Shown: piece by piece, positions 36,001 through 39,000 of the stretch
Numbering within the stretch: the first letter of the stretch is position 1
Layout: the number at the start of each line of letters is the position of its first letter
Assembly (NCBI RefSeq): GCF_054482525.1
Contig: NZ_CM137006.1
Length of the DNA: 64,000 nt
Strand: one strand, 5' to 3'
Program-made: the position numbers

Positions 36001-39000
36001 GGGCGGCGTTCCCGCACTTTCAAATCTGACTGGTTCCAGCATGACCCATGTACTGAAGAACAGGCCGAATGGCTAATTCATAACTATCGCAGACGCGGAT
36101 ACGAGATTAAGAAAGCCCTCAGCCTCGATTATCGTCACTGGATAATCTATGTCAGGCTCCCTTATTCCGAACGCCCACCGCGCCCATCCCGCACATACCA
36201 GCAACGGATCTGGAGGTAACGTGCGGATATTACTTCGACCTGTTCTGGTACCGGAACTCGGGCTGGTGGTCCTTAGGCCGGGCCGTGAATCCATGCAAGT
36301 ATTTCATAACCCTCGAGTGCTGGTGGAGCCTGAACCGAAAAGCATGCGCGGTCTGCCGTCCGGAGTCGTCCCTGCCGTTCGCCAGCCGCTGGCGGAGGAT
36401 AAATCATTACTGCCATTTTTCAGCGATGAGCGGGTGATTCGTGCTGCTGGCGGCGCTGGGGCGCTGTCTGACTGGCTGTTGCGTCATGTCAAATCCTGCC
36501 AGTGGCCTCATGGTGACTATCATCACAGTGAAATCGTCATACATCGTTACGGTACCAGCGCGATGGTGTTGTGCTGGCACTGCGACAACCAGTTGCGTGA
36601 CCAGACATCCGAATCACTCGGGCAACTTGCTCATCAAAACCTGTCAGCATGGATGATTGACGTCATACGCCATGCAATGAATGGCACGCAGGAGCGGGAA
36701 TTGTCGCTGGCTGAATTATCTTGGTGGGCGGTCTGCAATCAGGTGGCGGACGCGCTTCCGGAGGCAGTATTACGTCGTTCTCTGGGGGTACGTGCGGAAA
36801 AAATCCGCTCCTTGTACCGCGAAAGCGACATCGTACCGGGAGAGCAGACCGCCACCAGCATACTGAAGCAGCGCACAAAAAATCTTGCGCCGTTGCCTCA
36901 TGCCCACCAGCAACAGAACCCACCACAGGAAAAGACGGTGGTATGCATCACCGTTGATCCGGAGTCTCCGGAATCTTTCATGAGGCGACCTAAACGTCGC
37001 CGTTGGCTAAATGAGAAATATACGCGCTGGGTGAAGACACAGCCGTGTGCGTGTTGTGGTCAGCCAGCCGACGATCCCCATCACCTGATTGGTCACGGTC
37101 AGGGAGGGATGGGAACAAAGGCCCACGATATTTTCACGCTACCGTTGTGCCGGGAACATCACAACGAACTTCATGCGGATCCGCTGGCGTTCGAAGAAAA
37201 GCATGGTTCCCAGGTTGATTTAATTTTTCGTTTTCTTGATCACGCCTTTGCAACCGGCGTGCTCGGGTAAAAGAGGTTACTGATGCGTATAGAGTTTGTT
37301 TTGCCTTATCCGCCGACGGTGAATACTTACTGGCGACGTCGTGGCAACACATATTTTGTATCAAAAGTCGGTGAGCGTTATCGCCGTGATGTGGCACTAA
37401 TTGTTCGCCAGCAGCGGTTGAAATTAAACCTGTCCGGAAGGCTGGCAATAAAAATTATTGCAGAGCCACCGGATAAGCGCCGCCGCGACCTGGACAATAT
37501 CCTGAAGGCACCACTGGATGCGCTGACGCATGCCGGACTTCTCATAGACGACGAGCAGTTTGATGAAATCAATATTGTGCGCGGACTGCCTGTTCCTGGT
37601 GGTCGGCTGGGGATAAAAATCACAGAACTGGAGTGCGCATGAATAACCAGTATTTACAGTTTGTGCGTGAGCAGCTCATTATCGCCACCGCTGATTTGAG
37701 TGGGGCAACAAAAGGTCAGCTTGAAGCCTGGCAAGAGAATGCCATGTTCGATACAGGGCGTTACAGGCGAAAAAAAATCCGGTACCGCGATGAAGTGACT
37801 GGAAAAATGATAACGCGGGATAATCCACCAATCCCGGGAAAGCAATCGCTGGCGAAGGGGACGTCAATTCCTCTGGTCAGTCCGGTTGAGTTTTCGACAT
37901 CATCGTGGCGGCGGGCTGTTTTGTCTCTTGAAGAACATCATAAAGCCTGGTTGTTGTGGTGTTACAGCGGGAGTATTTGTTGGGAATATCAGATCGCGAT
38001 AACACAGTGGGCGTGGAATGAATTTAATACTCAATCCGGTACCAGAAAAATTGCAGGGAAAACGCAGGAACGCCTGAAAAAATTAATCTGGCTGGCGGCG
38101 CAGGCAGTAAAAGCAGAACTTTTTGGTGGGGAAGGTTATGAATACCAGGAGCTGGCATTACTGGCGGGAGTGACAACTAAAAACTGGTCCAAAACATTTA
38201 CTCGTCACTGGGTTGCAATGAAACACATTTTTCACCGACTTGATAGTGAGGCTTTATTGTTTGTAATGAGAACACGTTCAAAACAAAAGGCGGCATTTTC
38301 AAAGCAAAGTATTGCAAAAGTAGATTGAAAGGCATATATTTCATGCAAATCTGATATTTTGCCGATTTTGTACGTGATGGCAAAAGCAAACAAAACCCGC
38401 CCACAAGCGGGTTTTTTGTGCCACTTATCTCGGATAGACATGGTGAATGCGCTAGTGGAGGAGATAAGGGTGATTTTTGAATGCTTGCAACATTGATTTC
38501 GTAACGTTATTATCCTGCGCCCGGCCCTTTAGCTCAGTGGTGAGAGCGAGCGACTCATAATCGCCAGGTCGCTGGTTCAAATCCAGCAAGGGCCACCAGC
38601 CGCCACTAGCTCATCAGGAAAGAGCGTCAACCCTTTAAGTTGAGTGTGCGAGGTTCGAGTCCCCGGTGGCGGTCCAGTGCCGACTTAGCTCAGTAGGTAG
38701 AGCAACTGACTTGTAATCAGTAGGTCACCAGTTCGATTCCGGTAGTCGGCACCATATGCGGGCATCGTATAATGGCTATTACCTCAGCCTTCCAAGCTGA
38801 TGATGCGGGTTCGATTCCCGCTGCCCGCTCCAGTTAGAGTCTTTCAGTCTGCGATGATGGGAAATCCCGGAGTGACTGAAAGACGTTTAAGTTATGAATG
38901 ATCGCTTTTTTTGCAAAATTGCTGTGCAGAAATACTAACCTTCGGGCAGGCGATCATTCATAAGCACTCTGCTTTTATTCCGATTAACTGTGGGTGGTTT

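Follow-up and report, generated by a model that had tools for sequence, protein, structure and literature searches.

A lambdoid prophage tRNA operon carrying an argN-family gene with a lysine anticodon and a C33 anticodon loop

Shiga toxin (Stx) phages such as 933W, VT2-Sakai and Stx2a_F349 carry three tRNA genes, ileZ, argN and argO, behind a promoter of their own in a slot downstream of the late antiterminator gene Q, the promoter pR' and the terminator tR'. A cluster of the PPompW type in enterohaemorrhagic Escherichia coli (EHEC) prophages is listed as tRNA-Met, 'tRNA-Lys' and tRNA-Arg, of which the first is the same ileZ and the third is argO. We analysed a 64,000-nt stretch of DNA (hereafter the window) from contig NZ_CM137006.1 of the NCBI RefSeq assembly GCF_054482525.1, in which a lambdoid prophage carries four plus-strand tRNA genes (genes 1 to 4) in this slot at positions 38523–38832. 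The coordinates given by ARAGORN matched those of the initial annotation exactly, as did the anticodons CAU, UUU, UGU and UCC, and open reading frames (ORFs) and PHROG searches placed the cluster, as proposed there, between a Q-like antiterminator gene upstream and a holin gene downstream. The cluster is a variant of the ileZ-argN-argO module in which argN has become a gene with a lysine anticodon and C at position 33 (gene 2) and argO is replaced by copies of the host genes thrU and glyT, so that the set does differ from that of the Stx phages, as the initial annotation had stated, and a lysis cassette follows instead of stx. We put the probability at about one half that gene 2 derives from a phage arginine tRNA and is now a relic, folded and processed but impaired in decoding, in a compact operon whose working genes decode AUA, ACA and GGA.

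All four genes passed the Rfam tRNA model, the gathering score of which is 29 bits, with 72.5, 44.4, 73.8 and 64.9 bits for genes 1 to 4, and the E-values of 1e-8 to 1e-16 for the 326-base stretch scanned mean that the matches are not due to chance. The genes are separated by spacers of 1, 2 and 3 bases. The score of gene 2 (38600–38676, plus strand), at 44.4 bits, compares with 65–74 bits for its neighbours. Its sequence parses as CCGCCAC UA GCUC AUCAGGAAA GAGC G UCAAC CCUUUAA GUUGA GUGUG CGAGG UUCGAGU CCCCG GUGGCGG U CCA, that is, a cloverleaf with helices of 7, 4, 5 and 5 bp in which the sole non-standard pair is A51xC63 in the T stem, with C1-G72 at the end of the acceptor stem, U73 as the discriminator and an encoded CCA. 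The tertiary core is intact in the window allele (U8, A14, G18, G19, the T-loop UUCGA and the 3' CCA). When imposed on the sequence, the cloverleaf differed from the minimum-free-energy fold by no more than 0.5 kcal/mol; plain minimum-free-energy folding was uninformative, as even host thrU gave no cloverleaf. We rejected the A-C mismatch as proof of decay, because a genuine host gene carries one as well: the Rfam alignment of thrU, both in the window (38679–38754) and in K-12, has an A-C mismatch in the T stem, and such a mismatch alone is therefore no mark of a pseudogene.

The covariance-model alignment set the loop CCUUUAA on the consensus CUuauAA, which gives C32 C33 U34 U35 U36 A37 A38 and hence the anticodon UUU. 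The 7-nt length and A37 are canonical, and the U33 on which the U-turn depends is absent. The initial annotation had described gene 2 as a good cloverleaf with the loop CCTTTAA and C at position 33, and this reading is correct, since the covariance model places C on the consensus U33; neither this model nor ARAGORN, which calls UUU, returned a canonical loop. The same loop differs from the CUUUUAA of host tRNA-Lys(UUU), the lysT family, solely at position 33, with the UUU anticodon and loop positions 32 and 34–38 (CxUUUAA) in common. Beyond the loop, gene 2 has U73 for A73, C1-G72 for G1-C72 and a different anticodon stem. The three anticodon bases U34, U35 and U36 are the main determinants for lysyl-tRNA synthetase (LysRS), and gene 2 has all three and lacks the lysine discriminator A73. 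The main determinant for arginyl-tRNA synthetase (ArgRS) is C35, together with A20; gene 2 has lost the former, with U35 in its place, and kept the latter. There is no codon demand for gene 2: lysine codon use in a closely related annotated prophage resembles that of the host, which has several lysT-type genes (four in one K-12 cluster), and on these two grounds we rejected codon compensation as a role of gene 2 itself.

By sequence comparison, gene 2 is best placed as a derivative of the argN family, and neither as a relative of lysT nor as a functional arginine member. Its identity was 85.7% to a canonical tRNA-Arg(CCU) of Salmonella diarizonae, which has the same anticodon stem UCAAC/GUUGA, and 84.4% and 80.5% to argN of the F349 and Sakai types, compared with 59.5% to host lysT, 55.7% to the tRNA-Lys of phage T5 and 53% to argO. 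It occupies the argN slot, one base after ileZ and downstream of Q, and shares with the argN of Stx phages (80–84% identity) C1-G72, U73, A20 and the T arm, with the loop CCUUUAA in place of CUUCGAA and with both C35 and U33 lost. The suggestion of the initial annotation that gene 2 might be either a decayed argN/argO-like gene or a tRNA with altered decoding was thus borne out in its argN-like part, argN being the closest among argN, argO and the host lysine tRNAs; between decay and altered decoding the evidence leans towards impaired decoding, without settling the matter. Compared with Sakai argN, three pairs have changed on both sides with pairing kept (7-66 from U-A to C-G, 27-43 from C-G to U-A and 30-40 from G-C to A-U), and F349 argN has G-U intermediates at 7-66 and 27-43. 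The 17-nt anticodon arm holds six of the 11 differences that separate gene 2 from F349 argN (P about 0.02, binomial calculated by hand).

We then searched for relatives of gene 2 in species-representative genomes and in IMG/VR with a pattern for the 3' half and, separately, one for the 5' half; an exact-arm scan of the species-representative genomes gave no match, and the looser 3'-half pattern was needed. The scaffold CCGCCAY...RUGGCGG (C1-G72) was found in Yersinia, Serratia, Buttiauxella, Edwardsiella, Salmonella, Enterobacter, Brenneria, Raoultella and Kosakonia, and numerous viral contigs carry it as well. The usual gene order is Met(CAU)|X|Gly(UCC), where X is the relative of gene 2, and that of Buttiauxella, Met|X|Thr|Gly, is the order of the window. 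At one sister locus that was checked, the cluster is again flanked by a Q-like gene and a holin gene, both of protein families other than those of the window genes. Where retrieval relied on the 5' half only, the 3' half was still intact at 27 of 29 loci.

The anticodon loops of these relatives are mostly non-canonical, and position 33 includes A, C and G. Canonical arginine loops (CUUCGAA, CUCCUAA and CUUCUAC) occur beside lysine-like loops without U33, namely CCUUUAA in E. coli, CAUUUAA in Buttiauxella and six viral contigs, CAUUUCA and CAUUUAU. The others are 7-nt loops of further types (CAUUGCC and CCACAAG), 6-nt loops (CAUUAA at more than 20 loci, CAUCAA, CGUUAA, CAUUAU, UUUGAG and CGGGAU) and the 8-nt loops CAUAUUAA. 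In the two clades other than that of E. coli, each site of the loop differs 4.4–5.2 times more than sites elsewhere in the molecule, and in the E. coli clade this ratio is 0.6. The helices are kept: for the 22 distinct members whose loops are non-canonical, pairing holds in 94.8% of the stem cells, slid controls pair at 26–54%, and the observed covariation score was reached by none of 500 shuffles, for alignments in which the parser picked the best-pairing D and anticodon stems and the retrieval patterns fixed parts of the molecule. The same 22 members have changes on both sides of pairs 7-66, 27-43 and 28-42. On the same acceptor, D and T scaffold, and again within a Met|X|Gly cluster, Brenneria, Raoultella, Affinibrenneria and some viral contigs carry a form whose anticodon stem has 7 bp (UUGCUUC/GAAGUAA) and whose loop is GUGACAG; ARAGORN forces this form into a 'tRNA-His' call. 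In the literature searched, we found nothing relevant on ileZ, argN and argO, and no account of the gene 2 family among decoy or tRNA-like phage RNAs; as far as we could find, both the C33 loop and the combination, across the family, of a conserved body and a hypervariable, non-canonical loop are undescribed.

Within E. coli, the 401-bp cluster region was covered to at least 80% in 574 of 5,426 complete genomes, and gene 2 or a derived allele was present in 797 of them (about one in seven), with an identity of at least 99% in 278 genomes, 95–99% in 474 and 90–95% in 45. Derived alleles (below 99% identity) thus account for 519 of the 797 genomes, and those sampled carry U8C, a D-stem deletion or G18A. 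The intact allele is annotated as tRNA-Lys by the NCBI Prokaryotic Genome Annotation Pipeline (PGAP), and the commoner derived alleles are left without annotation: the 97.4% allele of the PPompW type, which has the CCUUUAA loop, a D stem one base short and G3:U70, the 96.1% allele with C4U, U8C and C11U, and the 90.9% allele, which has G18A in addition. In all three of the genomes inspected (E. coli A1_181, O26 RM10386 and O139:H1 W13-16), the flanking tRNA genes are annotated and the derived gene 2 is not, so that RefSeq tRNA counts differ between genomes according to the allele of gene 2. F349-type argN and the gene 2 copies of PPompW and Evi have a G3:U70 pair, the determinant of alanine identity, where the window allele has G3-C70. 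Deletions in the anticodon arm were seen in one Stx2c phage and at one IMG/VR locus. In 99 full four-gene loci of IMG/VR, genes 1 to 4 had 6, 12, 15 and 13 alleles, respectively, counted gene by gene because argO-type and thrU-type clusters misalign jointly, and with the last 23 bases of gene 2 fixed by the search pattern. The diversity of gene 2 relative to its non-coding flanks could be compared at 23 loci with homologous flanks, which are too few to decide.

We propose that a phage arginine tRNA of the argN family lost its canonical loop through the replacement of U33 by C and of the arginine anticodon by UUU. Gene 2 would still be transcribed from the operon promoter and fold as a tRNA, and since it retains its helices, T loop and CCA end, RNase P and the 3' trimming enzymes would probably excise it. 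It would no longer act as a regular decoder, because the ArgRS determinant C35 is lost and both A73 and the U33 turn are lacking. Its helices may be held in place by a processing constraint from the neighbours, which lie 1–2 bases away and whose maturation a misfolded insert would spoil. Impaired decoding is also suggested by the loops of the family, which are hypervariable and include lengths that are unable to decode triplets, the opposite of what a working decoder would have; the lesions that most E. coli copies have at U8, G18 or the D stem agree with a relic whose normal decoding is lost. The tRNA region of phage T5 (NC_005859, 30284–33949) may offer a precedent for non-decoding, tRNA-shaped RNAs among phage tRNA genes, since its RNA1, RNA2 and RNA3 are tRNA-shaped transcripts of unknown function ('tRNA-like stable RNAs') among real tRNA genes; they are not relatives of argN, and the likeness to gene 2 is drawn from their annotation.

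Several observations weigh against such a relic. The processing constraint is one that we infer ourselves, and the three compensatory pair changes relative to Sakai argN mean that selection on the fold has been real. In the 99 clusters, gene 2 has no more alleles (12) than the copies of thrU (15) or glyT (13). No variation was seen at loop positions 33–38 (CUUUAA) among more than 110 E. coli-type loci or in any of the 16 alleles, one of which has seven changes elsewhere, and position 32 alone is variable. The match to the host lysine loop at every position except 33, seen also with A33 in Buttiauxella and in several IMG/VR phages, looks kept rather than drifted. The mismatch A51xC63 is weak evidence of decay, given the similar mismatch of host thrU.

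A kept lysine-type loop would fit a function in counter-defence, in which gene 2, a lysine-anticodon tRNA on an arginine body, replaces host tRNA-Lys(UUU) that has been cut or serves as an uncleavable decoy for PARIS AriB, PrrC/RloC or P2 Old. We regard this main alternative as conceivable and rather doubtful, and just as tentative is its extension, that gene 2 and its Enterobacterales relatives constitute a class of tRNA-shaped prophage RNAs not described before, which lambdoid phages deploy as cleavage-proof substitutes or decoys against the tRNA-cutting defences of rival elements such as P2, P4-like satellites and prr loci. The UUU anticodon of gene 2 is the one targeted by AriB and PrrC. 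PrrC cleaves tRNA-Lys 3' to U33 (PMC2610378), and C33 sits at this very junction, altering the nucleotide whose 3' bond is cut. AriB requires U36AAUC|A41 and U16, its cleavage being abolished by U39A and impaired by U16C (PMC12409363), and gene 2, with U36AAGUU (G39 U40 U41) and C16, lacks this motif through changes in its stem. For P2-OLD, which kills via the thrU tRNA, recognition depends on paired CNG motifs of the anticodon stem (PMC12445682), and the compensatory change of G30-C40 to A-U has removed both the CAG and CUG motifs of argN from gene 2. These are comparisons at the level of sequence. For the bacterial enzyme that makes N6-threonylcarbamoyladenosine (t6A), the motif 36-UAA-38 is sufficient and base 33 is not read (PMC13276492), and gene 2 keeps this motif. 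The near identity to the host lysine loop, the CAUUUAA of sister clades and the concentration of changes in the anticodon arm point the same way, as does the lack of any E. coli-type arm with U33, A33 or G33 in IMG/VR. We also counted in favour that other lambdoid phages have tRNA-Asn(GUU) as well as tRNA-Thr(UGU) in the same slot (PMC3636060) and that the tRNA-Thr of phage 21 protects against P2-OLD (PMC12445682). Known nuclease-evading phage tRNAs (T5 tRNA-Lys against PARIS, tRNA-Thr of phage 21 and the T-even phages against P2-OLD, and those of the loop-mutation hypothesis of van den Berg et al. 2023) resemble gene 2 in having the target anticodon with changes at or beside the known cleavage and recognition sites; however, the validated ones retain U33 together with the cognate discriminator and a body like that of the cognate tRNA, whereas gene 2 has an Arg-type body, C33 and U73 instead of the A73 of lysine. 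The validated PARIS-resistant tRNA-Lys of T5 has the canonical CUUUUAA loop, A73 and a lysT-like body, so that C33 is not needed for escape from AriB, and we rejected it as a requirement for PARIS escape. Moreover, the thrU copy next to gene 2 matches its host counterpart exactly and is therefore still cleavable, with both nuclease sites kept, and overexpressed thrU was little protective against Old (PMC12445682). The 6-nt and 8-nt loops of sister clades cannot mimic tRNA-Lys, most E. coli copies are lesioned at U8, G18 or the D stem, and in the literature we found no documented effect of U33C on PrrC.

The same lesions would be expected if gene 2 were a neutral pseudogene, whose cloverleaf reflects only its recent origin and hitch-hiking between selected neighbours. 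Because the spacers are 1–2 nt long, recombination cannot part gene 2 from ileZ and thrU, the common derived alleles affect U8 and the D stem, and in the E. coli clade nine stem changes keep pairing and six break it, in addition to deletions, with a ratio of C-to-U to G-to-A changes of 9:3 that is not significant (one-sided binomial calculated by hand, 0.07). Within E. coli such neutrality may hold; we nevertheless consider it unlikely overall, since double compensatory changes across genera, including 27-43 from U-A to A-U, occur in members whose loops are already non-canonical, the gene has been kept in the same slot beside non-homologous Q and holin families, and nearly all loci retrieved by the 5' half keep their 3' half. 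A further function would be that of a recoding helper, whose Lys-type loop tunes the −1 frameshift of the tail-assembly chaperone G/GT. A dnaX-type slippery heptamer A AAA AAG lies at 50714–50720, directly before the stop codon of the G ORF, with the T frame open after the −1 shift, and both of its slip codons are read by tRNA-Lys(UUU). The 6-nt and 8-nt anticodon loops of the relatives recall frameshift-suppressor tRNAs, which we counted in favour of this role. However, lysine slippery sites are standard in such phages, even in those without tRNA genes, so that the coincidence is expected, and the Stx podoviruses and PPompW hold family members without a demonstrated link to frameshifting; we therefore consider such a helper very improbable. 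Equally hard to credit is an ordinary additional tRNA-Lys that adds to the supply, as implied by the RefSeq label 'tRNA-Lys'. The calls of ARAGORN and PGAP, the UUU anticodon, A37 and the UAA motif for t6A are as this would have them, but C33, U73 and the Arg-type body (59.5% to lysT) are not, nor are the several lysT-type genes of the host, the lack of a lysine codon bias in the prophage and the loss of the derived alleles from the annotation.

The public tRNA-Lys label of the intact allele is probably misleading for models of tRNA pools and codon usage. If gene 2 is a relic, it would represent a natural 'dead' tRNA kept folded by its operon position; if it acts in counter-defence, it would be a new counter-measure to the tRNA-cutting defences (PARIS, PrrC/RloC and P2 Old) described in 2023–2025. 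A conserved tRNA body with a fast-evolving, rule-breaking loop, situated in the slot between Q and the lysis genes of many enterobacterial prophages, is in either case relevant to the phage-tRNA field. The family itself, the exact copies of thrU and glyT and the operon promoter are additions to the initial annotation.

The other three genes of the cluster are normal decoders of A-ending codons that are used sparingly in E. coli and are commoner in the prophage. Gene 1 (38523–38598, plus strand; ARAGORN and Rfam) is an ileZ-type tRNA-Ile2 that is 100% identical to the ileZ of Stx2a_F349, VT2-Sakai and PPompW; it is labelled tRNA-Ile by PGAP, and its CAU anticodon decodes AUA after lysidine modification. 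Gene 3 (38679–38754, plus strand) is a tRNA-Thr(UGU) with all 76 bases identical to K-12 thrU, and gene 4 (38758–38832, plus strand) is a tRNA-Gly(UCC) with all 75 bases identical to K-12 glyT. The codons served by the three genes, AUA, ACA and GGA, are about 1.5–2 times commoner in the closely related annotated prophage than the frequencies that we take to hold for K-12, a comparison that is indicative only. Among the four-gene loci of IMG/VR, we also found two alleles of the thrU copy in which G42 and U43, equivalent to window positions 38720–38721, are replaced by CC or UC. These alleles have a shorter anticodon stem and an altered CNG motif, like phage tRNA-Thr variants reported to be P2-OLD-resistant.

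The Q-like late antiterminator gene upstream of the cluster (37633–38328, plus strand) was identified as an ORF matching PHROG phrog_304, 'anti-termination protein Q-like', with an E-value of 9.8e-109 and in agreement with the RefSeq annotation of the same prophage type. A late promoter-like site, TTGCAA-17-TATATT (38312–38340, plus strand; 9 of 12 matches in a consensus scan), overlaps the end of this gene and is putatively assigned as pR' on the basis of the lambdoid gene order. It is followed by a tR'-like intrinsic terminator read from the sequence, CCCGCCCACAAGCGGG and then a T run (38392–38420, plus strand), the hairpin of which is symmetric, so that the scan reports the minus strand while TTTTTT follows on the plus strand. 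A sigma-70-like promoter of the tRNA operon, TTGCAA-17-TATTAT (38485–38513, plus strand; promoter scan), lies nine bases before gene 1, and the GenBank record of VT2-Sakai annotates a 'putative tRNA promoter' at the equivalent position.

Downstream of the last tRNA gene, two perfect inverted repeats (38839–38963, plus strand) with arms of 11 nt (38839–38849 and 38874–38884) and 14 nt (38892–38905 and 38950–38963) may form processing or termination hairpins. They are placed between gene 4 and a terminator-like hairpin with a T run (39036–39064, plus strand; scan), which in turn separates the tRNA operon from the class II holin gene (39124–39339, plus strand; ORF, PHROG holin families with an E-value of 6e-35, RefSeq annotation).

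The prophage, a lambdoid element, combines an HK97-type head with a lambda-type tail and has a DicB/DicF/hokD region; it is integrated beside serU, which ARAGORN found to be intact. We rejected tRNA-dependent lysogeny (PMC10865867) for this element, as serU is intact and the four phage genes include no serine tRNA. The annotation of E. coli AMSCJX02, the closest complete genome, gives a frameshifted integrase for this type of prophage. Rfam and ARAGORN detected six other RNAs in the window: EFASI RNA (1701–1828), C4 antisense RNA (3261–3349), a host tRNA-Asn (24060–24135), the host tRNA-Ser(CGA), which is serU at the prophage end (25127–25216), DicF (29672–29723) and sok (34784–34958). The EFASI and C4 matches, which lie upstream, may belong to another mobile element.

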